Source: Hydrogenophaga intermedia (GTDB lineage Bacteria; Pseudomonadota; Gammaproteobacteria; Ga0077536). Taken from it: a stretch of 64,000 nucleotides of DNA. The translations under genes and the position numbers were made by a program. This document shows, in pieces, positions 15,831-51,630 of the stretch. The notes beneath the pieces were generated by a model. It saw nothing but the letters and a program-made list of their open reading frames with translations. It did no database searches and was not told the DNA's origin. Positions within the stretch are counted from its first letter, which is position 1. Each line of letters opens with the position of its first letter. The stretch is from the NCBI GenBank assembly GCA_943370145.1, contig CALRPY020000008.1, forward strand, positions 24,328 through 88,327. Reading direction: 5' to 3'.

Positions 15831-15857
15831 GCGACAGGACAGAGAACGTTGTTCTTC

Positions 15858-17132: not shown

Positions 17133-17167
17133 TTACACAAGGCAACGAGCAGAACCAGGACCAAGCC

Positions 17168-18916: not shown

Positions 18917-18988
18917 GCAGCCAGCGCGCAAAAATCCCTGGTGCTCCCGTGAGGGGGCGGTAAACGGCCCAAAGCAGGCGGTGGATCA

Positions 18989-19813: not shown

Positions 19814-19818
19814 CCGCC

Positions 19819-20685
19819 ATGTACGAGAAACACTTCGGTTTCCGCGAGCGGCCCTTCGCACTGAGCCCGGACCCGGCGTTTCTCTACCGCAGCCGCAAGC
19901 ACGGCATGGCCCTGACCATGCTGGAATACGGGCTCGTCAACGACGCGCCCATCATCGTCATCACCGGTGAAATCGGCGCCGGCAAAACCACGCTGATCCG
20001 CCAGCTGCTGAACCAGATGGACGACCGGACCTCTGTCGGCCTCATTTCGAATACCCACAAGGCTTTCGGCGAACTTATCCAGTGGGTGGCCATGGCCTAC
20101 GGGCTGCCCCATGAGGGCCGGGACAAGGTGTCGCTCTACCGGGCTTTCGTCGATTTCCTGATAGCGGAGTACGCGAAGGGTAAGCGCACGGTGCTGATAG
20201 TGGACGAAGCCCAGAACATGGACGCGGAGACGCTGGAGGAGCTGCGCGTGATCTCCAACATCAACGCGGACAAGAACCTGGTGCTTCAGCTGGTGCTGGT
20301 GGGCCAGCCCGAGCTGCGCGATACCCTGCGTCTGAAGCGGCTTGAGCAGTTCGCGCAGCGCATCGCGGTGGACTACCACCTGGATGCCCTGGACTTCAAG
20401 GAAGCGCGCGAGTACATCCAGCACCGGCTGGAATTTGCCGGCGGCAGCAAGAACATCTTCCAGCCGGACGCCATCCTCGAAATATTCAAGCATTCGGAAG
20501 GCGTGCCGCGCCTCATCAACTCCCTGTGCGATACAGCGCTGGTGTATGCCTTCGCCGAAGGCCGGCAACGCGTAACGGGCAAGCTGGTGATGGAGATGAT
20601 CGAGGAAAAGAAAGCAAAGAACCTCTTCGGCGCGGGGAAGCTGCGTTACGCCGAGGAAACGGAACAAGGATCGCCAGAGTCATGA
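19819..20685 (+). CDS. PEP-CTERM/XrtA-locus-associated AAA ATPase (ExeA/GspA-like 'secretion ATPase')
   Basis: 'FGFRERPFALSPDPAFLY' N-terminus, Walker A 'ITGEIGAGKTTL', Walker B 'VLIVDEAQN'. Confidence 0.8.
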   Translation: MYEKHFGFRERPFALSPDPAFLYRSRKHGMALTMLEYGLVNDAPIIVITGEIGAGKTTLIRQLLNQMDDRTSVGLISNTHKAFGELIQWVAMAYGLPHEGRDKVSLYRAFVDFLIAEYAKGKRTVLIVDEAQNMDAETLEELRVISNINADKNLVLQLVLVGQPELRDTLRLKRLEQFAQRIAVDYHLDALDFKEAREYIQHRLEFAGGSKNIFQPDAILEIFKHSEGVPRLINSLCDTALVYAFAEGRQRVTGKLVMEMIEEKKAKNLFGAGKLRYAEETEQGSPES

Positions 20686-21803
20686 CCCAGGAAAGAATGA
20701 AAATCGTGCTGGTGGCGGGCGCCCGCCCCAACTTCATGAAGGTGGCCCCGATCATTCGCGAGTTCAGGAAGCACGAAGACGTCTTCGACTGGCGGCTGGT
20801 TCACACCGGCCAGCACTACGACCATGGCATGAGCGACGTGTTCTTTGAAGAACTGGGCATCCCGCAGCCGCACTTTCACATGGGCGCGGGTGGCGGCAGC
20901 CACGCTGAGCAGACGGCGCGGATCATGATCGAATTCGAGAGGTACTGCGCCGAAGAAAAGCCCGCGCTCGTCATGGTCGTTGGGGACGTTAATTCGACCT
21001 TGGCGTGCTCAATTGTTGCCAAGAAACAAGGATGCCGAGTGGCTCATGTGGAAGCAGGCCTTAGAAGCGGCGATATGAGCATGCCAGAAGAAATAAACCG
21101 AATCGTTACCGACTCAATCTCAGATCTCTTTTTCGTTACCGAACCTAGTGGTCAAAGCAACTTGCTCAAGGAGGGGCACTCGGAGCGAGATATTTTCTTC
21201 ATCGGTCACGTAATGATCGACAACCTTTTTTTTCAATTAAGGCGTCTGAATGAAGAAGGCGCGAAAAGCCTGGAAACAGATTCTCTAAAAAAACGGTACG
21301 AACGTTACGGCGTAGTGACGATGCATAGACCTGCTAACGTGGATCACTATCCTACGCTCAAGGGAATTGTCGATGCTTTGAACGAGATCTCTCAGACCCT
21401 TCCGCTCATATTTCCCATCCATCCAAGGACAGCGGCAAACCTGGAGAAGTTCAGTCTTAAGACGAGCGACCGAATCGAACGCCTCAGCCCGCTACCATAC
21501 ATGGAGTTCTTGAATCTCTGGAAGGATGCACTAATTGTTTTAACGGACAGTGGAGGGCTCCAAGAAGAGACCACCGCGCTTGGCATTCCATGCATTACGA
21601 TGAGGAGCAATACTGAGCGCCCGGTAACAGTGTTAGAAGGCTCTAACATCATCGCAGGAACGAACCCCCAAGAAATCCTCAGGCTGACATTGGAGACGAT
21701 TCATTCACCCCCAACTCAAAAGCGACGAATTCCTGAGTTCTGGGATGGGAATGCGGCGTCAAGAATGATGACTGTGCTTATCCCTGCCGGTGGTCAGAAT
21801 TGA
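20682..21803 (+). CDS. wecB: UDP-N-acetylglucosamine 2-epimerase (non-hydrolysing)
   Basis: 'MKIVLVAGARPNFMKVAPI...VHTGQHYD..MSDVFFEELGIP', 'GDVNSTLA', 'HVEAGLRS' and 'PEEINR' are WecB/MnaA hallmarks. ATGA overlap with the upstream gene. A GC-content step occurs inside the gene at about 20.96-21.0 kb. Confidence 0.85.
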   Translation: MTQERMKIVLVAGARPNFMKVAPIIREFRKHEDVFDWRLVHTGQHYDHGMSDVFFEELGIPQPHFHMGAGGGSHAEQTARIMIEFERYCAEEKPALVMVVGDVNSTLACSIVAKKQGCRVAHVEAGLRSGDMSMPEEINRIVTDSISDLFFVTEPSGQSNLLKEGHSERDIFFIGHVMIDNLFFQLRRLNEEGAKSLETDSLKKRYERYGVVTMHRPANVDHYPTLKGIVDALNEISQTLPLIFPIHPRTAANLEKFSLKTSDRIERLSPLPYMEFLNLWKDALIVLTDSGGLQEETTALGIPCITMRSNTERPVTVLEGSNIIAGTNPQEILRLTLETIHSPPTQKRRIPEFWDGNAASRMMTVLIPAGGQN

Positions 21804-26320: not shown

Positions 26321-27697
26321 TTGACAATTTCTCAACCGACAATGACCAGCCAACTTTCGAATGTGGCGATGACTGCAAAGCGACCAGTGAGAATGCCATC
26401 CTTGAGATCGTTAATGCCGATTGAAAACAGTATGGCATTGCGCTTACTTGTCGTTCGAATTCTAGGGGCGGGCGCGTCCTTTCTCGTTGGGCTGTACATA
26501 GCTAGGCAATATGGTGCCGAGACTTCGGGAGCTTATTATCTGTTTCTGGCGATCACTACAGCTGGCGCAATGCTGTCGAGGCTAGGTCTCGATGGCGCCT
26601 TGACGAAGTCCTTCTCAAAGGCTCTATCTAATCAGAAGCGCGCTCAGGCCAATAGCATTTGGCTCTATTGCAGCGGAATTACAATTCTCTTGGCTTTGAC
26701 TATCTCTGCTGGCATCGGAATATGGGGAGAACCCATTCTAGCTCGGACTCTGGGGGCAGAGGCAAGCTCCTTCAAAATTTGTCTCATGCTGTGCGTGCCG
26801 TTCATGGCGCTGCAAAACATCAACTTTGGTGCCCTAAGGTGTTTGCACTGTCAGACAACCGCTGTTGTTCTGGAAACTGTGCTGACGCCAGCTACTACTA
26901 TCACGCTTTTGGTGTTCGAACTGCTCAAGCCATTGGGCAGTGCTGGTCTCCATGTCGTTTCAGCTTTTGTGATTGCTTGCGCAATCACAAGTTCTACGGC
27001 GGCTATTGCGGTTGCGCGTAAGCTTTCCTGGAGTGATGGCATCGGCGGCGTTCCGCAACGAGCCATGTGGCGGGTCGCGCAGAATCTTCTGTTGATTTCC
27101 CTGATTGGGCATCTTACTGAGTCAGTCTCTACGTACGTGCTCACTGCGTACGCGACCCTCGAGCAAGTGGGTATTTTTAATTTGTGCCTGCGGCTCGTGA
27201 TCCTTACTGGGCTTGCTGTTTCTGTAACTGATGGAATTAACGCTCCAAAGTTCGCCGTTCTTTTTGAGCAAGGAAAGCTTCGAGAAATTGAGTTGCTTGC
27301 GAGCAAAGCGATGGCCTTTAACCTACTGTTTGGCGCAGGTCCCCTACTTTTTATGTTTGCGTTTCCGTCCTGGACCTTGAGTCTCTTCGGGCAGGGCTTT
27401 GTTCCTGGCGCAACCGCATTACGAATTCTCGCGCTGGGTCAGTTAGGAATGCTTGCCTGTGGGTCGGTGGGGTACTTGCTGCTTATGGCCGGCAAGGAGC
27501 GCGCTGTTCTGCGCTCGTGGATATGTAGTCTTGCTCTTCAGGTGTTTGTTATTGGCTTAACTCTTCAAGAATACGGGGCAGAGGCGGCTGCATTAGCATG
27601 GACTGCCGCGCTGCTTCTGAGAAACGCGTTCGCCGTGAAAGTAAGCGCACGCGAAGTAGGGGTCAGGCTTAGGCTGTTTGCCTGGCTTCGCGATTAA
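26321..27697 (+). CDS. Polysaccharide flippase (Wzx/MOP superfamily)
   Basis: About 12 predicted hydrophobic segments over roughly 440 aa and typical Wzx size. Low GC. The start (TTG 26321 or a downstream Met) is uncertain. Confidence 0.65.
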   Translation: MTISQPTMTSQLSNVAMTAKRPVRMPSLRSLMPIENSMALRLLVVRILGAGASFLVGLYIARQYGAETSGAYYLFLAITTAGAMLSRLGLDGALTKSFSKALSNQKRAQANSIWLYCSGITILLALTISAGIGIWGEPILARTLGAEASSFKICLMLCVPFMALQNINFGALRCLHCQTTAVVLETVLTPATTITLLVFELLKPLGSAGLHVVSAFVIACAITSSTAAIAVARKLSWSDGIGGVPQRAMWRVAQNLLLISLIGHLTESVSTYVLTAYATLEQVGIFNLCLRLVILTGLAVSVTDGINAPKFAVLFEQGKLREIELLASKAMAFNLLFGAGPLLFMFAFPSWTLSLFGQGFVPGATALRILALGQLGMLACGSVGYLLLMAGKERAVLRSWICSLALQVFVIGLTLQEYGAEAAALAWTAALLLRNAFAVKVSAREVGVRLRLFAWLRD

Positions 27698-27740: not shown

Positions 27741-29015
27741 ATGGATGTGAATAACAATTTGCGGGTCAATAGCATCCCAGTGATGCTGGTATTGCCGTTT
27801 ATTAGTATTTTTTTCGATTCCCTTATTAATTACTTCCTAGTTAGAAGCGGTCCGCCCTTGCCGGTTAATTTCTTTTCGCTCCTTCTAATTCTGGGGGCGC
27901 TATTTAAGTACGGCCTAAAAGTTCTCCCGATCAAGTCCGTATTTACCTGGTGGATGACTTCAATCTCGCTATCGTTCGTGATCGGTATTTTGACAGCACC
28001 TGATATTGGTCTTATTAGAATAAATCAGGCACTGGGCATGCTCGCCGCTTATTTCGGCGGCTATTTGGCCTTCAGGTGGCTTTCGAGCGAGGACTGGATT
28101 GCGAAGCTTTTTATATCGATAGTTGGTGTGTACGTCGTCGTATGTTTGCTCGCGTTGTGGAAGGCGGCACCAAACTACTTCCCATTAGATGTTGAATACT
28201 GGTCCCTAGAAGGAGTCCCACAGCCTCGGCCGGCGGTGACAACCAATCAGAATTTCCAAATTTTCTACTTATTTCCTTGCGCCGTATTAATCGCGCTGCC
28301 ATTCAAAGCAATCCGGTTTTTATTCGTAAGTATTTTAATTATTTCGACCTATTACATTCTTGCGCAAGTTCAAACGCGGAGCGGAGTGGCGGCATTTGCT
28401 GGGGGCGTCCTGTTGGCAGCTGTCTCTCCTTTGTGGACGCCTGAATTGGGACGCAAGAAAATATTGTTTTTTATTGCGGTGGGAGTCAGTGGGCTGTTTT
28501 TTGTTGCGCCAATAATTCTGAGCTGGGCTGAGCTACTCCTGTACCGCTTTTCGAATGATGACTATGGGACGGGGCGCGGTCGCTTGATTAGCTTTCTTTA
28601 CCTGTTTGAGCACCTATGGGACCCCATGTGGTGGTTGCCGCGGGGAAGTCAGGAGTTTATCGATCGAACGGGGGATTTCGCCCACTCGAATATTACGTCC
28701 ATGTTTCTGAATGGTGGACTTCTTGGTCTTGCCGGATGGTTAGCTGTGGTGTGCTATCCGCTAATTGTTCTGACCAAAATGTTTCTTAAGCGGCAATTAG
28801 ACTCAGCGGCCACGTTAGTTTGGTGTGCCTTGGTAATTGTTTGGGTTACGCAGATGTCGCTAGACGTGGCGGTTCAGAAATACATATGGATTTGGGCTGG
28901 GGCCGGTGTGGCCACAATGGAGAGGATTCAAAGAAAGCGAAAATTGGGTGAGCAAGCAACCTACAAAAGTAATTTGCGAGCAGGGAACAGAAACTTCGCC
29001 AATTTGATGCCATGA
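27741..29015 (+). CDS. O-antigen ligase/polymerase-like (Wzy-type) integral membrane protein
   Basis: Polytopic membrane protein. It has a larger loop 'RFSNDDYGTGRGRLISFLYLFEHL...FAHSNITSMFLNGGLLGL' reminiscent of the Wzy_C/O-antigen ligase region. XrtA loci commonly carry such a gene. Confidence 0.6.
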   Translation: MDVNNNLRVNSIPVMLVLPFISIFFDSLINYFLVRSGPPLPVNFFSLLLILGALFKYGLKVLPIKSVFTWWMTSISLSFVIGILTAPDIGLIRINQALGMLAAYFGGYLAFRWLSSEDWIAKLFISIVGVYVVVCLLALWKAAPNYFPLDVEYWSLEGVPQPRPAVTTNQNFQIFYLFPCAVLIALPFKAIRFLFVSILIISTYYILAQVQTRSGVAAFAGGVLLAAVSPLWTPELGRKKILFFIAVGVSGLFFVAPIILSWAELLLYRFSNDDYGTGRGRLISFLYLFEHLWDPMWWLPRGSQEFIDRTGDFAHSNITSMFLNGGLLGLAGWLAVVCYPLIVLTKMFLKRQLDSAATLVWCALVIVWVTQMSLDVAVQKYIWIWAGAGVATMERIQRKRKLGEQATYKSNLRAGNRNFANLMP

Positions 29016-30214
29016 GTTTAAAAAAAATATTAATCGCTTGCTCCTCGCCTCCTGACCGAGATGGGGGAATTTGCTCGTATTCGAAAGAACTCACTGAGGC
29101 CTTGGTTCGCCAGGGGAAGGCGGTTTTTTACGCGTCGCCCAAGCCAAACGATTTTTCTTGGGTTAATGCGCACGCTTCCGGTTTCCTGGGTACGTCGCCG
29201 CGCGACGATCAGGCGGAGAGATGTCGGTCATTATTGAAGTTCATCTCAGATAACAAAATCGAGGCCGCTATCAATAATGACAATTCAGTTCTTCAGAGCG
29301 TGGCTCCGTGGCTAAATATTCCATTAATCGTGATCGGCCATATGGACCAGTTCTCTATTGCAACAGTTGCTTGTCATGAAAGTGATTGGGCGGACTATGT
29401 AGTTGCAATTTCCTACGACATGCGCAAAACGTTTATTGCGCGAGGCGTAGCCGCATATAAATGTCCTGTTATATACAACGGCGTGCGTGATCCGGGACTC
29501 AACGTGCGTGACCAGGCAACGCGACGTGCGTTACGCGTAGTATTCGTTGGAGACACCAAGCGAAAAGGCATGGATTTGGTTGCCTCAAGCCTTCGCATGA
29601 ATGCTACGGCTTGGGATGGTATCGAGCTTAGTTGGTTTGGAAATATCCCGGAGAAGCTTGGGTCTAGCTTAAAGCAGGCGACACCCAGCCTACGACTTGA
29701 GGGGAAAGTGCCGCGTTCTGAGTTTGAAGAAGCACTTAAAAGCGCGGACATTCTGCTTCTTCCTTCGAGGGCGGAAGGCTGCCCCATGGCTATGCTAGAA
29801 GCAATTAGCAGGGGCGTGGTGCCGGTTGTCTCCGACGGTGTCGGCGCGATGCGATGGATGGTTGACAGTGGTGTAGATGGTTTCGTCTGCTCTCTCAACA
29901 ATTGGCCTGCAGAGTCGCTTAATTGCCTTAAGTTCCTCAAGAGCAACCCAGACGTTTTGGCGGAAATGTCGTTAAAGGCTCGCGAGAGGTTCATTCGCCA
30001 ATTCGATATCAGTTTTACGGCGGAGAAGTTGGTCACTCTTCTCAGCCGCCCGACTGTCCAAAGAATGATTAAGCCGGAGGTGATTCAGGTCCTGCGGTGG
30101 CACAGAACGCCAGCCGGCTCAGGAAAGGCGTCTCTATGGGAGAGATTCTGTTTTCGATTTGGGGTTAAGCGCATTGCGGGATCGTTATCACAGTGTGATT
30201 CGAATGTTCAGTAA
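29012..30214 (+). CDS. Glycosyltransferase, GT-B fold (family 4/1)
   Basis: 'ILIACSSPPDRDGGICSYSKEL' N-terminus and 'ADILLLPSRAEGCPMAMLEAISRGVVPVVSDGVGAM' EX7E block. Confidence 0.75.
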   Translation: MSLKKILIACSSPPDRDGGICSYSKELTEALVRQGKAVFYASPKPNDFSWVNAHASGFLGTSPRDDQAERCRSLLKFISDNKIEAAINNDNSVLQSVAPWLNIPLIVIGHMDQFSIATVACHESDWADYVVAISYDMRKTFIARGVAAYKCPVIYNGVRDPGLNVRDQATRRALRVVFVGDTKRKGMDLVASSLRMNATAWDGIELSWFGNIPEKLGSSLKQATPSLRLEGKVPRSEFEEALKSADILLLPSRAEGCPMAMLEAISRGVVPVVSDGVGAMRWMVDSGVDGFVCSLNNWPAESLNCLKFLKSNPDVLAEMSLKARERFIRQFDISFTAEKLVTLLSRPTVQRMIKPEVIQVLRWHRTPAGSGKASLWERFCFRFGVKRIAGSLSQCDSNVQ

Positions 30215-31076
30215 TAAAGCGCTCGTGGCGTGTGTTTTCTTATTGGGTAGTGCTTTTGCGCAAGCCAAAGAATTTATCGTTTATGACGCAACTCAATACG
30301 AACACAAACCAGATCTTAGGCGGTATGGCATCATGCCGATGCCCGTTCTATACGATCAGTGGGCATACAATGACCGATCGGCTAAGTACAAAAAGGAAAA
30401 CCTGCCCGACCGTGCCATGCTAGCTGCTCGCGTAAAAAAAGAAGCGAGAAGTAGCGGCGTGATCGTGCTTGATTTTGAGTCATGGCCTGTTATGGGCTAC
30501 TCAAATATGCCGTGGGTCATGTCTCGTAGCGCAGAAAAGTACGTAAATGTGTTGCGCTGGGTGAAAAGCGATGTGCCAAAAATTAAGGTCGGATTCTTCG
30601 GAATAGTTCCGCCCAGCGACTATCTTGCGACCATTGCAGAGCCTTCCAGTAGGCGGTACCAGCAGTGGATTAGAGATAATAATTTAGTTAAAGCAATTGC
30701 CAATGAAATAGACATAGCTTTTCCTTCGGTTTACACGTATTCCGCTGACAGGTCGTTATGGAAGAGGTCTTTGCGCGCCCAGGTTTCAGAAGCTCGGCGT
30801 TTGTTTGGGGGGGCGGTTTACGTATTCATTTGGCCTCAGTATTTCGACCATGCGCCGGCAGATCCTGAGCTTTGGCTAAAATATATGGACGGTGAATTTT
30901 GGCGCTTTCAACTAGACGAAGTGCGCGCTGTGGCCGATGGCGTGGTTGTCTGGGGCGGTTGGGATTTTGAGCGCAATAGGCCAGCAAAGTGGGATCCGAA
31001 CGCCGCGTGGTGGCAAGAAACCAAGCGTTTCTCCGAGTCGAACAAGTTAAAACATCGTGAAAGCGTTCCAAAATAG
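30204..31076 (+). CDS. Secreted protein with GH56 (hyaluronidase)-like motif series; putative EPS glycoside hydrolase
   Basis: Signal peptide MFSNKALVACVFLLGSAFAQA. Ordered motifs 'GVIVLDFESWP' (D90-F-E92), 'VGFFGIVP', 'IAFPSVYTY' and 'ADGVVVWGGW' parallel bee-venom/human hyaluronidase 'GVIDFESWRP', 'WGYYAYP', 'LLPSVY' and 'ADGFIIWG' (comparison sequences recalled from memory). Confidence 0.5.
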   Translation: MFSNKALVACVFLLGSAFAQAKEFIVYDATQYEHKPDLRRYGIMPMPVLYDQWAYNDRSAKYKKENLPDRAMLAARVKKEARSSGVIVLDFESWPVMGYSNMPWVMSRSAEKYVNVLRWVKSDVPKIKVGFFGIVPPSDYLATIAEPSSRRYQQWIRDNNLVKAIANEIDIAFPSVYTYSADRSLWKRSLRAQVSEARRLFGGAVYVFIWPQYFDHAPADPELWLKYMDGEFWRFQLDEVRAVADGVVVWGGWDFERNRPAKWDPNAAWWQETKRFSESNKLKHRESVPK

Positions 31077-31425: not shown

Positions 31426-33015
31426 ATGAAACCCGATGTTCCGCGTATTGCCAATGGCGAGTGGCGAATGGCGCCGGCGCTCTGGGGTGTGTTGCTGATA
31501 GGGATCATGCTTGCGATTGCGCTGTCGTTTGACGGCATCAGCTACATGATCGACTACTGGCTCGACCGCGAAGAATACAGCCACGGCATCCTCATTCCTT
31601 TCATCGCCCTCTACCTCATCTGGCAGAAGCAACCCGAACTTGCGCGTCTCCCGTTCCCCGGCGCCTGGTCCGGCCTTGCGCTCACGCTGATCGGGCTTGC
31701 CGTGTACTACGCCGGTGAACTCAGCTCCCTGTATACCATTGTCCAGTACGGCTTCCTTATTCTGCTCTACGGCCTGGTGCTGAGCCTCACCGGCTGGCGC
31801 GCCTTCGTCATCGTGGCGATCCCGCTGCTGGTGCTGAGCTTCATGATCCCGCTGCCGAATTTCCTCTACAACAACCTCTCGGCGAAGCTGCAACTGCTGT
31901 CTTCCGAAATCGGGGTGGCGGTCATCCGCGGCTTCGGCATCAGCGTGTTCCTGGAAGGCAACGTCATCGACCTCGGCACCTACAAGCTGCAGGTGGTCGA
32001 GGCCTGCAACGGGCTGCGCTATCTCTTCCCGTTGATGACCCTCGGCTTCATCGTGGCCTACCTCTACCGGGCGGCGTTCTGGAAGCGGGCGATCATTTTC
32101 CTCTCCACCATGCCCATCACGGTGCTCATGAACAGCTTCCGCATCGGGGTCATTGGGGTGATGGTCGACCGCTGGGGCCAGTCCATGGCGGAAGGGTTCC
32201 TGCACGACTTCGAAGGCTGGGTCATTTTCATGGCCTGCTTCGCGGTTCTGTTCCTTGAAATGTGGTTTCTTATGCGCATCACCGGGGACCGCCGCCCGCT
32301 GGTGGCGGTTTTCGGGCTGGAGGCGCCCACGGCGCCGTCCGCGGAAGAGGGCGTCCCACTGCAACGCAAGATTCCGCTGCCGTTCATTGCCTCGCTGGCG
32401 GTGCTGGGACTTGCCGTCGCGGCGGGTGCCGCGCTGCCGGAGCGCGTGGAGGTGGCCCAGCCGCGCAAGGAGTTCAGCGAATTCCCGCTCGCGCTGGGCA
32501 ACTGGCAGGGCAAGGCGGAGCCGATGGAGCAGGTCTACATCGATGCCCTCAAGTTCACGGACTATGCCCTTGCAAACTACCAGGACGACGCCGGCCACGT
32601 GGTGAACTTCTACTCCGCCTACTATGCATCGCAGCGCAAGGGTGAATCCGTTCACTCGCCGCGCTCCTGCCTGCCGGGCGGGGGCTGGGAGATCCAGTCC
32701 CTGACCCAGCGGGACATTCCCGGGGTGGAGGTTGGGGGCGTGCCGCTGCGGGTGAATCGGGTGCTCATCAGCTATGGCGAGCAGAAGCAGGTGGTCTACT
32801 ACTGGTTCCAGCAGCGTGGCCGGGTGATGACCAACGAATACCTGGTCAAATGGAACATGCTCGTGGATGCCATCGCGCGCAATCGAACGGACGGCGCGCT
32901 CGTGCGGCTGACCATTCCGCTCAGGGAGGGGCAGAATGTGGATGAACTGGATAACGCGCTGTCGCGCTTCGCCAATGACATAAGCGGGTTGCTCCCCGCT
33001 TACATCCCGAACTAG
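31426..33015 (+). CDS. xrtA: Exosortase A (XrtA/EpsH) fused to a C-terminal EpsI-family domain
   Basis: Polytopic N-terminal half with 'VVEACNGLRYLFPL' (catalytic Cys, codon 32005-32007), 'NSFRIGVIGV' (Arg) and 'FLHDFEGWVIF' (His). The C-terminal soluble half 'LGNWQG...VNFYSAYYASQRKGESVHSPRSCLPGGGW...VVYYWF' is EpsI-like. Confidence 0.85.
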   Translation: MKPDVPRIANGEWRMAPALWGVLLIGIMLAIALSFDGISYMIDYWLDREEYSHGILIPFIALYLIWQKQPELARLPFPGAWSGLALTLIGLAVYYAGELSSLYTIVQYGFLILLYGLVLSLTGWRAFVIVAIPLLVLSFMIPLPNFLYNNLSAKLQLLSSEIGVAVIRGFGISVFLEGNVIDLGTYKLQVVEACNGLRYLFPLMTLGFIVAYLYRAAFWKRAIIFLSTMPITVLMNSFRIGVIGVMVDRWGQSMAEGFLHDFEGWVIFMACFAVLFLEMWFLMRITGDRRPLVAVFGLEAPTAPSAEEGVPLQRKIPLPFIASLAVLGLAVAAGAALPERVEVAQPRKEFSEFPLALGNWQGKAEPMEQVYIDALKFTDYALANYQDDAGHVVNFYSAYYASQRKGESVHSPRSCLPGGGWEIQSLTQRDIPGVEVGGVPLRVNRVLISYGEQKQVVYYWFQQRGRVMTNEYLVKWNMLVDAIARNRTDGALVRLTIPLREGQNVDELDNALSRFANDISGLLPAYIPN

Positions 33016-33033: not shown

Positions 33034-34677
33034 GTGCTGGCCAGCCTGTCATTCATCGTGGCGATGTTCAGCACCATGTTGCTGATCCCGCCGCTCATGC
33101 GCATGGCCGTGCGCTTCAAAATCGTGGACCTGCCCGACCCCCGCAAGGTCCACGCCTTCCCGGTGCCGCGTATCGGCGGCATTGCGATGATTGTCGCCGC
33201 GGTGGCGCTGATCCTGCTGTGGGCGCCGCGTACCGATACCGTGCTGTGGTATCTGGCGGGCGTGGGGGTGATTGCAGTGTTTGGCGTCTGGGACGACCGC
33301 AGCCCGCTGAATTACCGCCTTAAGTTCCTGGGCCAGTTGCTGGCCACCCTGTGCGTGGTCCTGGGGGGAGACATTTCCATCCACTTCCTGCCTTTCCTTG
33401 GGGTGGAAGCCGTGCCCAACTGGGTGTCGATCCCCCTCACGGTGTTCGCCCTCCTGGGCATTACAAACGCGATCAACCTCGCCGACGGCCTGGACGGGCT
33501 GGCCGGCGGCACCACCTTCATCAGCATCGCCGTGATTGCGCTGCTGGCCTTTATGGCCGACGACGCCACGCTGCTGATGTTGTGCACCGCAATTTTGGGC
33601 AGCATCGTCGGTTTCCTGCGCTTCAATACCCACCCGGCCCAGGTCTTCATGGGAGACGCCGGCAGCCAGTTTCTGGGATTCTCCGCCGGGGTGCTGGTAA
33701 TCATCCTGACCCAGCAGAGCAATCCGGCCATCAGCCCCGTGATTCCATTGCTTATCCTGGGCTTGCCGATTCTCGACACCCTGCTGGTGATGGGGCAGCG
33801 CATTTACGAGGGGCGCTCGCCCTTCAAGCCGGACAAGAACCACATTCACCATCGGCTGCTCGCGCTGGGCTTCGACCAGTACGAAGCGGTTGTGGTGATC
33901 TATGCGATCCAGGCGGTGATGGTCACCAGCGCGGTGCTCATGCGCTATGAATCGGATGTCCTGAACGCGATCTGGTTCGTGGCGCTGTGCGCGGCCGTGC
34001 TGCTGCTCTTTCGTATCGCGAACCGTGCCGGCTGGAAGGCCCACGGGCGCCACCACCAGGCTACCCAGTCCGCGCTGGCGCGCATGGCGGAACGCATCAA
34101 GCGCACAGGGTTGCTGGTGCGTGGGCCACTGCTCTATCTAGGGGCGGCGATTCCCGGTTACCTGCTCTACGTCATCTGGCAGTGCAAAGGCGTCCCCCAG
34201 GACGCCGCGATAACACTGTCGGTCCTGCTGGCGATCGCCATCGCGCTGTTGTTCGCCTATCGCTATCGACCTTGGATAACGGTGGTAGACCGCACCGTGA
34301 TTTGTACCACCATCACGGCGGGGGTGTATTACGGCGTTGAAGCATCGCCGGGGGAACAGGCCCGGACAATTGAAAACGCCGTGTTCGTGGGCCTGGTCAT
34401 CGCGATCATCCTCTTGTATCGCTATTCGAAGAGCCGCAGCTTCAAGGTTTCCTCGATGGACTTCCTTGTCATCTTCGCGGTGATGGTCCTGCCCAACCTG
34501 CTTGGCCAGGACATCGCGCAGACCCGGCTCAGCGAGGTCGCCACCAAGGCGGTATTGCTGTACTACGGTGTGGAATTGGCCATCTCTCAGTTACCAGGGC
34601 GTACCCGCTGGGTGAGGGTGGCGATGGCGAGTGTGCTGGCCGTGTTCGTGGCGCGGGTGCTCCTGGTCCAGGTGTAA
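33034..34677 (+). CDS. Polyprenyl-phosphate N-acetylhexosamine-1-phosphate transferase (WecA/MraY family, GT4) with an extended C-terminal membrane domain
   Basis: '[20 protein letters not shown]', '[15 protein letters not shown]', '[12 protein letters not shown]' and '[10 protein letters not shown]' are MraY/WecA-family motifs. About 200 extra hydrophobic residues at the C-terminus. Confidence 0.8.
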
Positions 34678-34760
34678 GCAGACAGGCAGCGCGGCGCTCG
34701 CCCCGCGCGGGCTTGCATGAAAAAATGGCGGCATCACGCCAAGGATCCGGAGCCTTTCGA

Positions 34761-35852
34761 GTGAAGAAGAAAACAGCCCTCATCACCGGCGTCACCGGCC
34801 AGGACGGCGCTTATCTCTCCGAGTTCCTGCTGAAGAAGGGCTACGAAGTCCACGGCATCAAGCGTCGCTCGTCCAGTTTCAACACGGGCCGCATCGACCA
34901 CATCTACCAGGACCCGCACGAGAAGGGGCGTCATTTCGTACTGCACTACGGGGACCTCACGGACGCCACCAACCTCATCCGTATCGTGCAGCAGGTGCAG
35001 CCGGACGAAATCTACAACCTCGCGGCCCAGAGCCACGTGGCGGTGTCCTTCGAAACGCCGGAATACACCGCGAACTCCGATGCCCTTGGCACGCTCCGGC
35101 TGCTGGAGGCCATCCGCATCCTGGGCCTCGAGAAGAAAACGCGTTTCTACCAGGCGTCCACCAGCGAGATGTTCGGCAAGGTGCAGGAGATTCCGCAGAA
35201 GGAAACCACGCCCTTCTACCCGCGCAGCCCGTACGGGGCGGCGAAGGTCTACGCGTACTGGATAGTGGTGAACTACCGCGAGGCCTACGGCATGTTCGGC
35301 TGCAACGGCATCCTGTTCAATCACGAGTCGCCCATCCGGGGCGAGACCTTCGTTACCCGCAAGATCACGCGCGCGGTGGCGCGCATCAGCCTGGGGCTGC
35401 AGGACTGTCTCTATCTCGGCAACCTCGATTCCCTGCGCGACTGGGGGCACGCCCGCGATTACGTGAAAGCCATGTGGCTCATGCTCCAGCAGGACGAACC
35501 GGACGACTACGTGGTGGCCACCGGCAGGCAGATCTCCGTGCGCGATTTCGTGAACGCCGCGTTTCGGGAGGTCGGCATCGAAATCGACTGGCGCGGCAGC
35601 GGCGTGCACGAACAGGGCGTGGACCGGGCGAACGGCCGCGTGCTGGTGCAGGTGGACCAGCGCTATTTCCGTCCGACGGAAGTGGACACCCTGCTGGGGG
35701 ACCCCGGTAAGGCCAAGGCGAAGCTGGGGTGGGAAGCGGAAACCCCGCTCGAAGATATGGTGCGTGAGATGGTCGAGGAGGACCGGCGCGATGCGGAGAA
35801 GGACGAACTCTGCAAGCGGGAAGGCTTCCGGGTTTTCGACTATTACGAATGA
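34761..35852 (+). CDS. gmd: GDP-mannose 4,6-dehydratase
   Basis: '[50 protein letters not shown]', 'YNLAAQSHV', '[12 protein letters not shown]'. Start set at GTG 34761 by analogy with the Gmd N-terminus (alternatives ATG 34725, TTG 34713). Confidence 0.9.
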
Positions 35853-35919
35853 GGCAGCCGCGCGACGAGGCCGGTGACAACCGCGCCCGGGTCTATGCCG
35901 GGCCCTTCGCAAGGCGGGA

Positions 35920-36864
35920 ATGAACAACATGGACCTGGATTCCAAAATCTTCATCGCAGGCGCGCGCGGCATGGTCGGCTCGGCCATCGTGCGGGCCCTG
36001 CAGGCGCAGGGTCATCGCCGCCTGCTGACGCCGGGTCGCGACAGCCTGGACCTTAAACAGCCCGCTGCCGTAAGCGATTTCTTCGCGCGCGAAAAGCCGG
36101 ACCACGTCTTCGTGGCGGCGGCGAAGGTGGGCGGCATCCTCGCGAACAACAGCTACCCCGCCGACTTCCTGTACGACAACCTGATGATCGAGGCCAACGT
36201 GATCCACGCCGCGCACGAAGCGGGCGTGCGCAAGCTGCTGTTCCTGGGCAGCACCTGCATCTACCCCAAGCTTGCGCCGCAGCCACTCAAGGAGGAATAC
36301 CTGCTGTCCGGGCCGCTCGAACCCACCAACGAGTGGTACGCGGTGGCGAAGATCGCGGGCATCAAGCTGTGCCAGGCCTTCCGTCGCCAGCACGGCTGCC
36401 ACTTCATCTCCGGCATGCCCACCAACCTCTACGGTCCGAACGACAATTACGACCTGCAAAGCTCACACGTGATGCCGGCGCTGATCCGCAAGTTTCACGA
36501 GGCGAAGGTGCGCGGGGAGCCGACGGTCACGATCTGGGGGTCCGGCAAGCCGCTGCGCGAGTTCCTGCACGTGGACGATTGCGCGGAGGCCTGCGTCTTT
36601 CTGATGCGCCACTACGACGGAGACGAGCACGTGAACATCGGGGTGGGGCAGGACCTGAGCATCCTGGCTCTCGCGCAACTCATCGCGGGCGTGGTCGGCT
36701 ACTCCGGGGAACTGGTGTTCGACGCCTCGAAGCCGGACGGCACGCCGCGCAAGCTCGTGGACACGACGAAGATCAACGCCCTTGGCTGGCGCCCGCGAAT
36801 CGGCCTGGAGGAGGGCGTGCGCATGGCGTACGCGTGGTTCAGGGAGAATGTGGCGACGGTTTGA
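35920..36864 (+). CDS. fcl: GDP-L-fucose synthase (GDP-4-keto-6-deoxymannose 3,5-epimerase/4-reductase)
   Basis: 'KIFIAGARGMVGSAIVR', 'LFLGSTCIYPK', 'NEWYAVAKIAGIKLCQAF' and 'MPTNLYGPNDN' are typical Fcl/WcaG. Confidence 0.9.
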   Translation: MNNMDLDSKIFIAGARGMVGSAIVRALQAQGHRRLLTPGRDSLDLKQPAAVSDFFAREKPDHVFVAAAKVGGILANNSYPADFLYDNLMIEANVIHAAHEAGVRKLLFLGSTCIYPKLAPQPLKEEYLLSGPLEPTNEWYAVAKIAGIKLCQAFRRQHGCHFISGMPTNLYGPNDNYDLQSSHVMPALIRKFHEAKVRGEPTVTIWGSGKPLREFLHVDDCAEACVFLMRHYDGDEHVNIGVGQDLSILALAQLIAGVVGYSGELVFDASKPDGTPRKLVDTTKINALGWRPRIGLEEGVRMAYAWFRENVATV

Positions 36865-37301: not shown

Positions 37302-38675
37302 ATGGGCGCAAAAACAGGCCGTAACGATCCTTGCCCCTGCGGCAGTGGCAAGAAAGCCAAGCACTGTCACGGCGCGGACCGGCCGGCGGTCGTCCAGGAT
37401 AATTTTGTCGACGGGCAGGGCGCCGTGGCGACGGCCTTCCGCTGGCTGGAGCAGCGCCACGGCGACGCGATGCGCGAGTCTTTCATGGGCTTCCTGCTCG
37501 ACGACCTGTGGCCGGAGCAGGCGCCGGCGCCGGAGACCTTCGACAACGCATTCCTCACCGAAGTGTCGGAATACCTGCAGGCGATATGGCTGGCCAGCTG
37601 CGATCTCGAAGCAGGGCACCGCCGGTATCGCCGCGTGATTGACCTCGTCTGCGCGCCGCACGGCGCGCCATTGACGCAAGGCCAGCGCAACTATCTGCGG
37701 CAACTGGGCACGCAACCACTGCGGCTGTATCGCGTCATCGAGGCGGCCGGGGAGGAGACCTGGCGGGTGATGGATGCGATCGATCTCACGCTGGACCCGT
37801 TCGTGGCGCGAATCCCTGGCGCGGAAGGCATCAAGCCGGGAATGATGATGGCCGGGCGCGCCCTCGATGTGAACGGCTCGCTGGCGCTGACGGAGGACAT
37901 GCTCCACTTCCCCGCCCCCCATGACCTCCGAATCCTGAACCTGGTGAGCGACCTGGCCGCCCAGGACTACAAGCACGAGAGTGAACGCGACTTCGACATC
38001 GAAATCGAAATCGCCGCGTTGTGGCTGGAGATGGTTCTTGCGCATGCGGTCGCCCACATCGCCGACCAGCACGCCAGCCGCGACGGCAACCCGGACCTGC
38101 TCTTCATCACGGACCATTACCAGGTCCTAGACGACGCGCGGCTCGTCAGCACGCTGAACGACTGCCCCGCGCTCGATCACCAGACCGGCCCGGGTTGGTT
38201 GCTGCTTGCCGGGGACGCGGACGCTCCCGAGGACATCGAACTCGAAATCCTGCGCGGCGCGCGACCAGACAGGCTCGAGGTGCAGTACGCCTCACAGGCC
38301 GCGGCCGACGCGGGGCGCCCCTGGTTCGAAAACCTGGTTGGCGATGCCGTGCGCTATCTCACGCGCGAGATCTCGGAGCCCGGCGCAATGCTCGACGATG
38401 AGGTCATGCGGGAGATCGAGTCGCTGCCCAGCGGTGCGCTGGAACAGCTGCTCGATGGCGGGCTGCTCGAGCTTTTCAGGCAATGGCCCGACGAGCCCCA
38501 CCCGGCGCTCGGCGGGAAGACCCCACGCGAGGTGGTCCGGACCAGCGCTGATGTGCCGCAGGTGAAGGGCTTGCTGCTCGCCATCGAGGAAGAGGCCGCG
38601 ACGCTCGCGCGCGAGCAGGGGCTTGCGCCGCTGTCGTGGCAATTCCTGTGGGACGACCTGGGGCTGAAGCGTTAG
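37302..38675 (+). CDS. SEC-C metal-binding motif protein (N-terminal CPCGSG...C.H), function unknown
   Basis: ATG 37302 preceded by AGGAG. 'GRNDPCPCGSGKKAKHCHG' is a SEC-C zinc motif placed at the N-terminus. The upstream part of ORF 37143.. lies in repeats. The remaining ~430 aa have no family I can name. Confidence 0.65.
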   Translation: MGAKTGRNDPCPCGSGKKAKHCHGADRPAVVQDNFVDGQGAVATAFRWLEQRHGDAMRESFMGFLLDDLWPEQAPAPETFDNAFLTEVSEYLQAIWLASCDLEAGHRRYRRVIDLVCAPHGAPLTQGQRNYLRQLGTQPLRLYRVIEAAGEETWRVMDAIDLTLDPFVARIPGAEGIKPGMMMAGRALDVNGSLALTEDMLHFPAPHDLRILNLVSDLAAQDYKHESERDFDIEIEIAALWLEMVLAHAVAHIADQHASRDGNPDLLFITDHYQVLDDARLVSTLNDCPALDHQTGPGWLLLAGDADAPEDIELEILRGARPDRLEVQYASQAAADAGRPWFENLVGDAVRYLTREISEPGAMLDDEVMREIESLPSGALEQLLDGGLLELFRQWPDEPHPALGGKTPREVVRTSADVPQVKGLLLAIEEEAATLAREQGLAPLSWQFLWDDLGLKR

Positions 38676-38815
38676 CGGCGTCGGCCAGGCCGTGCCGGCC
38701 GTCGCGGCGGCTTCCCCTGAATCTTGCCGACAGCCCCTTTTGCGCGAGCCTGTTACAGTCTTTTAACAATATGACCGGTAAAATCCGGTTTCCAGCCCGC
38801 ACTGCAGGATTCGAC

Positions 38816-41206
38816 ATGCGTTTCAAAAAAATTGCGTTCATGCTCCTGGTCGCTTCGCTCGCCGCATGCGGGGGCGCGGAAGACCGCAAGGCCGCCTACA
38901 TGGAAAAGGGGCAGGCCCTGTACGACGCCGGCGACTATGACAAGGCGCGGCTGGAGTTCAAGAACGTCCTGCAAATCGATCCCAAGGACATCCCGTCGCG
39001 CTACATGCTGGCGCAAACGCTGGAAAAGCTGCAGGACTGGCGCGGCGCGGCGGGCCATTACCTCGGCATCATCGAGGCGGACCCGACGCACCGCGAAGCC
39101 CTGTCCCGCATGGGCCAGATTTACCTCCTGGGCCGCAACGCCGAGGAAGCCGGCAAGCTTGCGGACAAGCTGCTGGCGCTCAACGCGCAGGATCCGGACG
39201 GCCTCACGCTCCGGGCCGGCATCAAGGCGCTCAACAAGGACGTCGACGGCGCGCTCGCGGACGTCAAGGCGGCGCTGGAGGCGCAGCCCGGCCATGTGAA
39301 TGCGTCGGCGCTCCTCGCGTCCCTTTACCTGCAGACCGGCAAGCCGGACGAGAGCATCGAGGTATTGAAGACGGCGCTGGAAAAGGATCCGAAGAACACC
39401 ACGGTGCAGGCCCTGCTGGCGCGGGTCTACACCCAGCTCGGCAAGAAGGACGAGGCCGAGCAGCTCTTCCGGGACATCATCGCCGCCGAGCCCGACACCC
39501 TGGGGCATCGCCTGCGTCTCGCGCAGTTCCTCGTCGACGGTGAGAAGCTCGACGACGCCGAGGCCGTACTCACCAAGGCCGTCGACGACATCACCAAGGT
39601 GCCGAAGGACGCGGTTACCGCGAAACTCAGCCTCGTCGAGTTCCAGGCCAAGGCACGCAGCGCGGACAAGGCCATTGCCACGCTGAAGGGCATGGTCGAC
39701 AAGGAGCCGAAGAATTCCGAGCTGCGCGCCGCCCTGGCGAAACTGTATGAAGCCGCGCAGAAGCCGGATGACGCGATTGCCACCTACGACAGCATCATCG
39801 AGGCGGCGGAAGAGCCGAACGCGCCGCAGGCGCTGAGCGCCAGGACGCGCAAAGCGATGGTGCTGGCCCGCAAGGGCGACGCCGCCGGCGCGAAGTCGCT
39901 GGTGGAAGAAGTGCTGAAGGAAAACCCCCGCGACCAGGACGCGCTGGTGCTGCGAGGCTCGCTGGCGCTGGACGCCGGTGATGCCGGTGCGGCCATCGCG
40001 GACTATCGCGCCGCGCTGAAGGACAACCCGAATTCGCCGGACGTCTCGCGCCTGCTGGCGCGCGCCCACCAGGCGAACAAGGAACCGCAGCTCGCCATCG
40101 ACACCCTGCTGAAGGCGGCGGAGGCCAACCCGGCCGCGCTGCAGCTGCGCGGTGACCTGGCGAACCTGTACTCGCAGCAGCAGAACCTCGATGCGGTGAT
40201 CGGGCAGCTGGACGAAGTGCTGAAGCAGGATCCGGACAACCGTCCGGCCCTCGAGGGCAAGTTCAAGACCTACGTCTACCAGAAGAACTGGACCAAGGCG
40301 ATGGAGCTTGCGGACCAGCTGAAGACGCTCCTGCCGAACGACCCGGTTGGCTTCTACTTCGCGGGCCTCGTGCACCAGGCGGAGCAGAAGCTGCCGGAAA
40401 GCATCGAGCAGTTCGAGTCCGCGCTGGCCGTGGCGCCGGACGCCGTGCAGCCGCTGTCCCAGCTCGTGAAGAGCCACCTTGCGATGGACAAGCGTGACGT
40501 CGCCGAGAAACGCCTGGCCGAGGTGTTGGAGCGCAATCCGAAGAACTTCGTCGCGAACAACCTGCTGGGCGAGCTGCAGCTGACCAGCAAGCGCTTCGAG
40601 GAGGCGAAGAAGTCATTCGAGACCGCGCTGGTGTCGAACGACAAGTGGGCCATCCTCTACCGCAACCTCGCCACCACCAAGCTCGCCCTGAAGGACGAGG
40701 CGGGTGCGGTGAAGACCATGGAGGAGGGTATTGAGAAGACCGGCGGCTCCTCGCTGCTGGTGACAGGCCTTGCAACCTACCTGGAAAAGGCCGGCAAGCT
40801 GGACCAGGCGGTGGCGCAGTACGAGAAGGTCCTGAAGGAGAACCCGAAATCGCAGCTGGCCGCCAACAATCTCGCGATGCTGCTGATCGAGTACAAGACG
40901 GACGACGCTTCCCGCCAGCGCGCGCGGGAGCTTTCGAAGATGCTGCTCGAGAGCAAGGAAGCGGCCTACCTGGATACGGTGGGCTGGGTGGAATACAAGT
41001 TCGGCGACTTCCAGAAGGCCTCCGAGTATCTCGAGAAGGCTGTCCAGGCCGCGCCAGACGCCGCGCTCATCCGCTACCACCTCGGCATGGCCTACGTGGG
41101 GCTCGGCAACAAGGTGCTCGCCAAGGACAACCTGAAACAGGCCGTGGACGCGAACATCGAGTTCAAGGGGCTGGAACAGGCGAAGGCGGAGCTGGCGAAG
41201 CTGTAA
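38816..41206 (+). CDS. prsT: PEP-CTERM-system TPR-repeat lipoprotein (PrsT-like)
   Basis: Lipobox 'LLVASLAAC-GG' after ATG 38816. About 20 consecutive TPR-like repeats (GDYDKARLEFKNVLQIDPKD...). Size and location beside an XrtA locus fit the TIGR02917 description. Confidence 0.75.
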   Translation: MRFKKIAFMLLVASLAACGGAEDRKAAYMEKGQALYDAGDYDKARLEFKNVLQIDPKDIPSRYMLAQTLEKLQDWRGAAGHYLGIIEADPTHREALSRMGQIYLLGRNAEEAGKLADKLLALNAQDPDGLTLRAGIKALNKDVDGALADVKAALEAQPGHVNASALLASLYLQTGKPDESIEVLKTALEKDPKNTTVQALLARVYTQLGKKDEAEQLFRDIIAAEPDTLGHRLRLAQFLVDGEKLDDAEAVLTKAVDDITKVPKDAVTAKLSLVEFQAKARSADKAIATLKGMVDKEPKNSELRAALAKLYEAAQKPDDAIATYDSIIEAAEEPNAPQALSARTRKAMVLARKGDAAGAKSLVEEVLKENPRDQDALVLRGSLALDAGDAGAAIADYRAALKDNPNSPDVSRLLARAHQANKEPQLAIDTLLKAAEANPAALQLRGDLANLYSQQQNLDAVIGQLDEVLKQDPDNRPALEGKFKTYVYQKNWTKAMELADQLKTLLPNDPVGFYFAGLVHQAEQKLPESIEQFESALAVAPDAVQPLSQLVKSHLAMDKRDVAEKRLAEVLERNPKNFVANNLLGELQLTSKRFEEAKKSFETALVSNDKWAILYRNLATTKLALKDEAGAVKTMEEGIEKTGGSSLLVTGLATYLEKAGKLDQAVAQYEKVLKENPKSQLAANNLAMLLIEYKTDDASRQRARELSKMLLESKEAAYLDTVGWVEYKFGDFQKASEYLEKAVQAAPDAALIRYHLGMAYVGLGNKVLAKDNLKQAVDANIEFKGLEQAKAELAKL

Positions 41207-41430: not shown

Positions 41431-41613
41431 CCGCGACACCCTTGCGCGCGGCCTCTTCCCGGGCGGGGGAGGCGAAGGTCCCTGGGGCCTGTCGTTTGGC
41501 TTAGCTGGGCTGGGAGCCTCTACGTGACCTGCATCAATTGGTGGCGACTTGCCTGACCCTAGGCTTCACCACGGCATCGATGCAAACGGCACACGATGAT
41601 GAGGTAAGAGTCC

Positions 41614-51611: not shown

Positions 51612-51630
51612 GCCTCATGCGTGACGCGCC

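Follow-up and report, generated by a model that had tools for sequence, protein, structure and literature searches.

Reviews describe GH56 as a family of mammalian and venom enzymes (PMC11669647; PMC12254123). The hyaluronidases of this glycoside hydrolase (GH) family, such as the bee-venom enzyme (Hyal/Api m 2; PDB 1FCQ), Ves v 2 (2ATM), human HYAL1 (2PE4) and PH-20 (9JUB), are secreted proteins built on a seven-stranded barrel, with a D-x-E motif at the end of strand β3, followed by G-[YF]-Y in β4, N-D in the α4 region, P-S-x-Y in β5 and D-G-x-[VI]-[VI]-W-G in β7. Bacteria encode glycosidases of other families within the clusters for exopolysaccharide (EPS) biosynthesis: PslG (GH39), the hydrolase domain of PelA (GH166), BcsZ (GH8), ExoK (GH16) and the C-terminal domain of PgaB (GH153) are periplasmic or secreted, are encoded in the cluster of the polymer that they are expected to cleave, and are presumed to serve in chain trimming, release or quality control. 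A survey of metagenome-assembled genomes (MAGs) counts dbCAN matches to "GH56 (hyaluronidase)" in Acidobacteria without analysing them (10.1101/2021.04.09.439258), and our literature search found no paper that characterises a bacterial GH56 enzyme or links GH56 to exosortase or EPS loci.

Here we describe a GH56-like gene in a 64,000-nucleotide (nt) stretch of a Hydrogenophaga intermedia assembly (GCA_943370145.1, contig CALRPY020000008.1, positions 24,328 to 88,327 of the forward strand), hereafter the window. The encoded protein is very probably a remote but genuine GH56 homologue, in both fold and ancestry, and the gene lies inside a biosynthetic cluster, a position that is conserved across taxa. 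We consider it reasonably probable that the protein acts in the periplasm as a retaining endo-β-N-acetylhexosaminidase with a substrate-assisted mechanism and, in a role like that of the EPS hydrolases listed above, trims EPS that contains N-acetylhexosamine (HexNAc) and is made by the cell itself.

The analogy with PslG, PelA, BcsZ, ExoK and PgaB is functional only: the protein described here belongs to a different GH family, its predicted mechanism is substrate-assisted and would need a 2-acetamido sugar at subsite -1, and its gene is associated with Wzx/Wzy and the exosortase XrtD, not with a synthase-dependent pathway. With the GH56 hyaluronidases it shares the seven-stranded barrel, the location of D-x-E, the motif order and nearly the same motif spacing. 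Unlike them, it has a domain of only about 265 residues (about 330 in the hyaluronidases; about 15 % identity in the structural alignment), with none of the conserved disulfides (the mature protein contains no Cys), no helical insert after DFE, no EGF-like C-terminal domain and F132 in place of Tyr184; furthermore, it is bacterial, is encoded inside an EPS biosynthesis locus, and its substrate is probably not hyaluronan. The mechanism predicted here, with an acid/base Glu and a neighbouring carboxylate that orients the acetamido nucleophile, is also that of GH18 (chitinases and endo-β-N-acetylglucosaminidases), GH20, GH84 and GH85, which likewise have TIM-barrel-type folds; such substrate-assisted retaining hexosaminidases are reviewed in PMC12254123.

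An initial annotation of the window, made without database searches, had called a bacterial GH56 protein unusual. It is less unusual than assumed there, since GH56-type bacterial matches are already present in Pfam and dbCAN annotation. For some members, the bacterial link is thus already latent in these resources.

Homology to GH56 hyaluronidases

The open reading frame (ORF) encodes a 290-amino-acid (aa) protein, and translation confirmed the four motifs that the initial annotation had placed in it, namely GVIVLDFESWP (D90/E92, with DFE encoded at 30471-30479), VGFFGIVP (129-136), IAFPSVYTY (Y177) and ADGVVVWGGW (W250). The GH56 counterparts given in the initial annotation are correct: the Api m 2 sequence used here is 100 % identical to 1FCQ_A, which contains GVGVIDFESWRP, NWGYYAYP, LLPSVY and ADGFIIWG, and the spacing of the last two motifs is indeed similar, with 73 residues between Y177 and W250 compared with 74 between Y227 and W301 in 1FCQ.

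Homology was assessed with two alignments of homologues, one of 22 sequences (A1) and one of 124 (A2). As a profile against PDB sequences, A1 retrieved 1FCQ (E=1.2e-7) and HYAL1 (2.7e-3), and A2 matched all four GH56 proteins (1FCQ, 5.8e-10; 2ATM, 5.8e-7; 2PE4, 7.2e-6; 9JUB, 1.9e-3). Comparison of A2 with an alignment of 35 insect GH56 sequences using hhalign gave 98.7 % probability and E=4.2e-16 over 227 columns that span β1-β7, from the first strand (EFIVYD aligned with EFNVYWN) to the last (GVVVWGG aligned with GFIIWGS). The Pfam profile PF01630 (Glyco_hydro_56; gathering score 23.2 bits) is matched by 70 of the 124 relatives at E<=0.01; eight of ten re-scanned relatives exceed the cut-off, with 25-47 bits, and 36.2 bits were obtained for the orthologue encoded by the chromosome of Nitrospira sp. 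UBC2.

The AlphaFold2 model of the protein (predicted local distance difference test score, pLDDT, 91.7; predicted TM-score, pTM, 0.87) consists of seven β-strands alternating with helices. The best six Foldseek matches in the PDB are all GH56 entries (1FCQ, 2J88, 1FCU, 2ATM, 9JUB and 2PE4; E from 1.7e-10 to 3.7e-7), representing four proteins, namely bee-venom hyaluronidase (three entries), Ves v 2, PH-20 and HYAL1; the next match, a GH26 mannanase (E=1.6e-4), trails even the weakest of these by about three orders of magnitude. Structures of GH114, GH135 and GH166, which the initial annotation had named as competing barrel families, are absent from the 50 matches listed. GH18, GH20, GH84 and GH85 yielded no match at E <= 0.001, the only representative among the 50 matches listed being a GH18 domain (7PUK, rank 41, E=2.5e-3), and their motifs differ from those of this protein, for example DxxDxDxE in GH18 and pairs of the type D-E or D-D in GH20 as well as GH84. 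Judging from the model, the distorted (β/α)7 barrel characteristic of GH56 is present, and the protein is predicted to be a single-domain (β/α)7-barrel glycoside hydrolase. Given the profile E-values together with the hhalign and Foldseek results (4.2e-16 and 1.7e-10), the link to GH56 is not a chance resemblance, in support of the interpretation put forward in the initial annotation.

Several observations weigh against this assignment. With hmmscan, the protein itself does not reach the PF01630 gathering score and shows no match to this profile even at E<=10, so that the Pfam evidence comes from the relatives and not from the single sequence. Pairwise BLASTP against 1FCQ is marginal (E=0.002 in one comparison; 25 % identity over 129 residues), and the Foldseek TM-scores to GH56 structures are 0.54-0.58, with a root-mean-square deviation of ~6-7 Å. 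Phenylalanine 132 occupies a position in β4 where the insect GH56 alignment has an invariant, substrate-binding Tyr; the two GH56 disulfides (C22-C313 and C189-C201 in the bee enzyme), whose Cys residues are invariant in the insect alignment, are missing, as is the helical insert of ~30-40 residues that follows the DFE motif in GH56. Domains of the bacterial family contain a median of one Cys. Against a hidden Markov model (HMM) of insect GH56 built here, the protein scores 18.5 bits with filters off. Because the single-sequence searches are silent, including those of NCBIfam (no match) and of the PDB with phmmer (nothing significant), the GH56 link of this particular protein is invisible to standard annotation.

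The searches also returned weak matches to a different fold, and the resemblance to GH56 could in principle be spurious, the protein being a member of another TIM-barrel family or an SGNH/GDSL-type esterase. The only Pfam match of the single protein with hmmscan, to Lipase_GDSL_2 (E=0.003), reached 18.5 bits, short of the 32.9 bits required, and weak profile matches to sialate O-acetylesterase and lysophospholipase L1 (E ~0.01) cover residues ~105-180. All these matches are below threshold and involve one helix-strand-helix segment, whereas three independent methods, namely profile-sequence, profile-profile and structure comparison, all rank GH56 first by large margins, and seven strands together with five active-site residues align with GH56. 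This explanation is effectively refuted. Identification as a GDSL lipase was rejected on the same grounds, the local helix-strand-helix similarity being outweighed by the fold and profile evidence.

Predicted active site and export

Residue equivalences, taken from the A2 profile and hhalign alignments, show that E92 (bee E113) and Y177 (bee Y227) are present in all 124 relatives, W250 (bee W301) in 121 and N159 (bee N209) in 115. The position of D90 (bee D111) is occupied by D in 117 relatives, N in 6 and E in 1; hence, the D-x-E pair (D129/E131 in HYAL1) is conserved among homologues, as expected from the initial annotation. Position 132 (bee Y184), Phe in this protein, is Y in 100 relatives and F in 24, and within the surrounding VGFFGIVP motif G130 is found in 120/124 and P136 in 124/124. 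Strong purifying selection on the catalytic residues argues against a pseudo-enzyme, and the machinery predicted from these alignments is that of substrate-assisted retaining hydrolysis.

In the mechanism proposed by analogy with GH56, Glu92 would serve as the acid/base that protonates the glycosidic oxygen, with the oxygen of the 2-acetamido group on the subsite -1 HexNAc as the nucleophile. Asp90 and Tyr177 would position the acetamido group, with Trp250 packing on the acetyl methyl group.

The N-terminus reads MFSNKALVACVFLLGSAFAQA followed by KE and comprises an n-region that is short and basic, together with a hydrophobic core and the cleavage motifs AFA/AQA. It includes one hydrophobic 19-mer (residues 8-26), has a pLDDT of only ~58 across residues 1-20 and has counterparts in 111 of the 124 homologues, in which a hydrophobic segment precedes the domain. 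The signal peptide claimed by the initial annotation is therefore predicted here as well, and the protein is probably exported to the periplasm. An interpretation of L-V-A-C10 as a lipoprotein motif was discarded, since the segment before it is not long enough and the Cys lacks conservation. The mature protein has a computed mass of ~31.6 kDa, a pI of ~9.3 and zero Cys. An upstream TTG at 30159 is a possible alternative start that would add 15 residues without affecting the shape of the signal peptide. From its ATG, the gene overlaps the end of the preceding glycosyltransferase gene by 11 nt.

The bacterial family

An exhaustive HMMER search at E<=1e-3 identified 2,572 representatives (50 % identity), 873 of them with E<=1e-30; a word-indexed homologue search had found 22 clusters and badly under-represented the family compared with this search. 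Among GTDB species representatives, A1 retrieved 79 loci, most of them in Nitrospira MAGs, with the remaining carriers belonging to Gammaproteobacteria, Desulfobacterales, Acidobacteriaceae, Phycisphaerae, Bacteroidales and Geminicoccaceae. Overall, members come mostly from Nitrospira, with Proteobacteria, Acidobacteria and Planctomycetes as further carriers, and two of the loci are from cultured organisms, Steroidobacter agaridevorans SA29-B (L070) and Sphingopyxis italica DSM 25229 (L071). For both the GH56-like protein and XrtD of the window, the nearest relatives come from gammaproteobacterial MAGs.

This distribution bears on the possibility that the protein is a true hyaluronidase or chondroitinase that acts on foreign, animal- or protist-derived glycosaminoglycans (GAGs), for nutrition or host interaction. 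Homology to enzymes with hyaluronan and chondroitin substrates would be in line with such an activity, as would the basic mature protein, suited to polyanion binding; however, the pI spreads widely in the family (5.4 to 9.5, 10th-90th percentiles), free-living Nitrospira and environmental MAGs make up most of the carriers, and all examined loci are biosynthetic, with glycosyltransferase, Wzx, Wzy and exosortase genes and without uptake or catabolic genes. We regard a role in degrading foreign GAGs as very unlikely.

Multidomain relatives carry Big_7, an InlB B-repeat, a weak dockerin match or PG_binding_1. The last of these, located N-terminal to the GH56-like domain in the metagenomic protein P0164 (558 aa), would also fit a peptidoglycan substrate and so speaks against EPS as the target. 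Peptidoglycan is a β-1,4-linked HexNAc polymer and is compatible with substrate-assisted catalysis. A lysozyme-like β-N-acetylhexosaminidase or muramidase of this kind, apparently exported to the periplasm, could open the sacculus locally to allow assembly of the envelope-spanning EPS export and exosortase apparatus, and the TIM barrel of the Clostridioides difficile peptidoglycan hydrolase Cwp19 is among the weaker Foldseek matches (E=5.6e-4). Nevertheless, the match to Cwp19 is weaker by about six orders of magnitude than those to GH56 structures, the other fusion partners are of surface or carbohydrate type (Big_7, the weak dockerin match and the InlB B-repeat), and the gene lies in a low-GC, polymer-specific module rather than in the conserved export core (see below), which makes a peptidoglycan substrate improbable. 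In another metagenomic protein, P0030 (576 aa), the family profile matched two stretches, possibly the result of a tandem duplication.

Gene neighbourhood in the window

In the cluster (Table 1), ManC is followed by the genes for the outer membrane polysaccharide export protein (OPX), a protein of unknown function, the polysaccharide co-polymerase (PCP), a tyrosine kinase and the PEP-CTERM ATPase; WecB; two GT4 glycosyltransferases (GTs) and a WcaI-like GT; Wzx, the Wzy-like protein with ten transmembrane (TM) segments, a further GT4 and the GH56-like protein; and, after a gap, XrtD, the WecA-like protein, Gmd and Fcl. The 3' part encodes a SEC-C/Xre protein, a PrsT-like tetratricopeptide repeat (TPR) protein and a protein with a VPxPA-TM-Arg C-terminus. 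Contrary to the initial annotation, which had put the GH56-like gene at the end of the EPS cassette, it is located mid-cassette, with the genes from XrtD to the VPLPA-CTERM protein following it.

Table 1. Features of the GH56-like gene and the surrounding polysaccharide cluster (window coordinates)
Feature	Coordinates	Strand	Evidence
GH56-like glycoside hydrolase gene	30204..31076	+	ORF/translation; family profile vs PDB GH56; hhalign; AlphaFold2; Foldseek
Predicted Sec signal peptide, residues 1-19 or 1-21 (MFSNKALVACVFLLGSAFA/QA)	30204..30266	+	Read from sequence; hydrophobic 19-mer; homologues
D90-F91-E92, C-terminal end of strand β3; predicted catalytic pair	30471..30479	+	Aligns with D111-F-E113 of 1FCQ
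VGFFGIVP (residues 129-136), strand β4, equivalent to GH56 WGYYAYP; F132 equivalent to bee Y184	30588..30611	+	hhalign
FPSVYTY (residues 173-179), strand β5; Y177 equivalent to bee Y227, HYAL1 Y247	30720..30740	+	Profile, hhalign and BLASTP alignments
ADGVVVWGGW (residues 244-253), strand β7; W250 equivalent to bee W301	30933..30962	+	Profile, hhalign and BLASTP alignments
XrtA/PEP-CTERM-type export/assembly core: OPX, unknown, chain-length determinant, tyrosine autokinase, system ATPase	15255..20685	+	TIGR03027, TIGR03007, TIGR03018, TIGR03015
WecB, non-hydrolysing UDP-GlcNAc 2-epimerase (UDP-ManNAc supply)	20526..21803	+	TIGR00236, 305.9 bits vs cut-off 210
Wzx-type flippase (Polysacc_synt)	26321..27697	+	PF01943 E=9.7e-11; eight hydrophobic segments
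Candidate Wzy-like polymerase, membrane protein	27741..29015	+	Ten hydrophobic segments
GT4 glycosyltransferase	29012..30214	+	NCBIfam GT4 matches
XrtD (VPLPA-CTERM-specific exosortase, fused EpsI domain), 350 bp downstream of the GH56-like gene	31426..33015	+	TIGR04152, 578 bits vs cut-off 400
WecA/MraY-family polyprenyl-phosphate HexNAc-1-P transferase, initiating enzyme	33034..34677	+	TIGR02380 E=5.9e-55, below its cut-off
gmd + fcl (GDP-L-fucose supply)	34713..36864	+	TIGR01472 615 bits; NF047922 514 bits
PrsT-like TPR lipoprotein of exosortase systems	38636..41206	+	TIGR02917 E=2.8e-91
VPLPA-CTERM-type protein, 244 aa: VPxPA + TM + Arg-rich tail, ends APVPVPAALWLLVPAVAGLLGMSRRAGRAQLLA before the stop	41538..42272	+	C-terminal sequence; no Pfam/NCBIfam match

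Some of the assignments are provisional. The true start of wecB is probably near 20697. The candidate polymerase has no match in Pfam or NCBIfam and is probably Wzy; an equivalent ORF of 414-435 aa is found in the same position in the three closest related loci (L001, L002 and L004). The VPLPA-CTERM-type protein is, from its C-terminal sequence, a likely substrate of XrtD.

In the segment bounded by the WcaI-like GT and GH56-like genes, the G+C (GC) content drops to 45-53 %, against a background of 62-68 %. Since low GC is common to the GH56-like gene and the Wzx, Wzy and GT genes, the GH56-like gene belongs to a repeat-unit-specific module that was presumably exchanged horizontally. There are two low-GC blocks, 20800-23200 (wecB and a GT4 gene) and 24800-31400 (WcaI-like GT, Wzx, Wzy-like, GT4 and GH56-like genes), which suggest that a repeat-unit cassette was swapped horizontally, as happens in O-antigen loci; the core genes of the XrtD system keep a high GC content. 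At the junction between high and low GC, a 240-aa ORF (24261-24983, +) begins in another frame within the 3' end of the GT4 gene at 23431-24594 and matches Glycos_transf_1 over residues 127-203, possibly as a GT remnant or the product of a frameshift.

Initiation by a WecA-family HexNAc-1-P transferase and the supply of UDP-ManNAc by WecB imply that the polymer should contain HexNAc. The substrate would be the cell's own HexNAc heteropolysaccharide, made by the Wzx/Wzy pathway through WecA-like initiation, WecB and several GT4 enzymes with GDP-Fuc and GDP-Man as further precursors, and exported via the OPX/PCP machinery of the XrtD/PEP-CTERM type. In the periplasm, beside Wzy, the enzyme would trim, release or length-limit the chains. 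The Wzy pathway forms the inter-repeat bond at the initiating sugar, and if this is a β-HexNAc bond, the enzyme would cut exactly at the junctions of the repeat units. A point against a hyaluronidase-type role is that no Ugd-type gene, needed for uronic acid, was found in the window, so that a hyaluronan-like GlcA-GlcNAc polymer is not supported and the substrate is probably not hyaluronan-like. No sulfotransferase gene was found in the window either. A GAG-like polymer is not supported for this window, as it contains neither of these genes, both are rare in related loci, and a Heparinase II/III-like gene was detected in one of those loci only.

Conserved context in related loci

Related loci, 83 in number, were screened by tblastn, with WecA-like homologues counted within 8 kb. 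An XrtD homologue is present in 51 of the 83, usually directly downstream of the GH56-like gene, on the same strand and typically at a distance of 230-450 bp; a WcaI-like GT (GT4) was detected in 60/83, a WecA-like gene in 45/83 and a PrsT-like gene in 41/83. In all nine other loci that were inspected, the homologue is located in a polysaccharide cluster. The closest relatives (L001, L002 and L004) share the order Wzx, Wzy-like, GT4, GH56-like as well as nearby genes for a WecA-like protein and an XrtD-type exosortase; the more distant L003 has a similar Wzx/Wzy/GT cluster, also with an exosortase nearby. Distant members lacking an exosortase within 8 kb (Sphingopyxis, Steroidobacter and an Acidobacteriaceae MAG) are still encoded among Wzy_C, GT4, Wzx, Bac_transf and Gmd/Fcl-type genes. 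The proposed role of a periplasmic hydrolase that trims EPS fits this family-wide context.

The same context accommodates a variant of the trimming hypothesis, in which the same fold and active site serve a synthetic or remodelling function, as a transglycosylase or a chain-release factor acting with Wzy; the protein might transfer or re-join EPS blocks, or attach glycan to XrtD-processed VPLPA-CTERM proteins. Retaining GH56 enzymes transglycosylate under specific conditions (PMC11669647). The Wzy gene directly adjoins the GH56-like gene in L016 and L070, a Wzy_C membrane domain and a GH56-like domain occur in one ORF of the metagenomic P0069 (746 aa), pairing with xrtD is tight in ~50 loci, and the cluster encodes a VPLPA-CTERM protein. 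However, an internal Met in P0069 precedes a segment resembling a signal peptide, so that two genes may have been read as one, and the distant members have no exosortase within 8 kb. We consider a transglycosylase or chain-release function unlikely and favour hydrolytic trimming of EPS.

Ugd-type dehydrogenases are encoded in 6/83 loci only, and sulfotransferases in only 3-4 (L001 and L005 represent the same contig). The latter are found, one or two genes each, in L001/L005 (Gammaproteobacteria MAG N2D-Bin_4), L002 and L076; L001 also carries a gene for a fused ATP-sulfurylase/APS-kinase, suggestive of a sulfated EPS. A Heparinase II/III-like gene was detected in one locus only, L010 (4641-6374; Nitrospira sp. 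UBC2, CP092081.1), two genes upstream of the GH56-like gene in an XrtD-type cluster; it represents a second GAG-enzyme-like fold in this locus, and an AsnB-type amidotransferase is encoded two genes further upstream.

Implications for GH56 and for exosortase-associated polysaccharides

A large uncharacterised bacterial branch (~2,570 clusters at 50 % identity) puts the origin of GH56 in a different light, this being a textbook animal and venom family: the bacterial branch is compact, disulfide-free and tied to Wzx/Wzy and exosortase EPS loci. The surprise is limited, given that some members pass the Pfam GH56 threshold and that "GH56" counts for bacterial MAGs already appear, without comment, in dbCAN surveys. 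More speculatively, and on balance we doubt it, the hyaluronidases of animals and other holozoans could have branched off from a large, ancient family of bacterial enzymes, or descend with it from one immediate ancestor. The native task of that family would be to remodel the cell's own exosortase-associated matrix polysaccharide, and GH56 would have entered holozoans by transfer from bacteria. If so, Nitrospira and many Proteobacteria would possess a matrix polymer along with an endogenous hyaluronidase-type remodelling enzyme, analogous to the turnover of the animal extracellular matrix, and some of the polymers would be sulfated and GAG-like, because of the loci with sulfotransferases, APS kinase or the Heparinase II/III-like gene.

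The protein is a candidate polymer-processing glycosidase for the XrtD/PEP-CTERM EPS systems, which are important in floc and biofilm formation, and the most frequent carrier, Nitrospira, is a key nitrifier in wastewater treatment. A small, Cys-free prokaryotic GH56 scaffold should be easy to express and might be of use in structure-function work on hyaluronidases or as an enzyme that degrades biofilm matrix.

Other features of the window

The non-coding 350-bp gap between the stop of the GH56-like gene and the start of xrtD (31077-31425) is unusually large and constant for same-strand genes and has equivalents in ~35 Nitrospira loci (e.g. L017, L026, L030 and L035). It is possible that a regulatory element lies upstream of xrtD in this gap; a promoter and terminator scan around the GH56-like gene gave nothing above shuffled expectation, and there are no Rfam matches in the window. 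Between fcl and the PrsT-like gene, a 510-aa protein (37143-38675, +) combines a SEC-C motif with an Xre/MbcA/ParS C-terminal antitoxin domain and has no obvious polysaccharide function.

The high-GC left flank contains a 1,749-aa ORF (212-5461, +) that has no NCBIfam match at E<=1e-10 and is overlapped by a long antisense ORF, as is common in high-GC DNA. The right flank (45281-61646) is ordinary chromosome, with aceE, a soxC-type sulfite dehydrogenase gene and sulfate ABC transporter genes; flanks with aceE, soxC and cysPA indicate that the region is chromosomal. A sigma-54 activator encoded in the right flank resembles the PEP-CTERM-box response regulator (TIGR02915, below cut-off).

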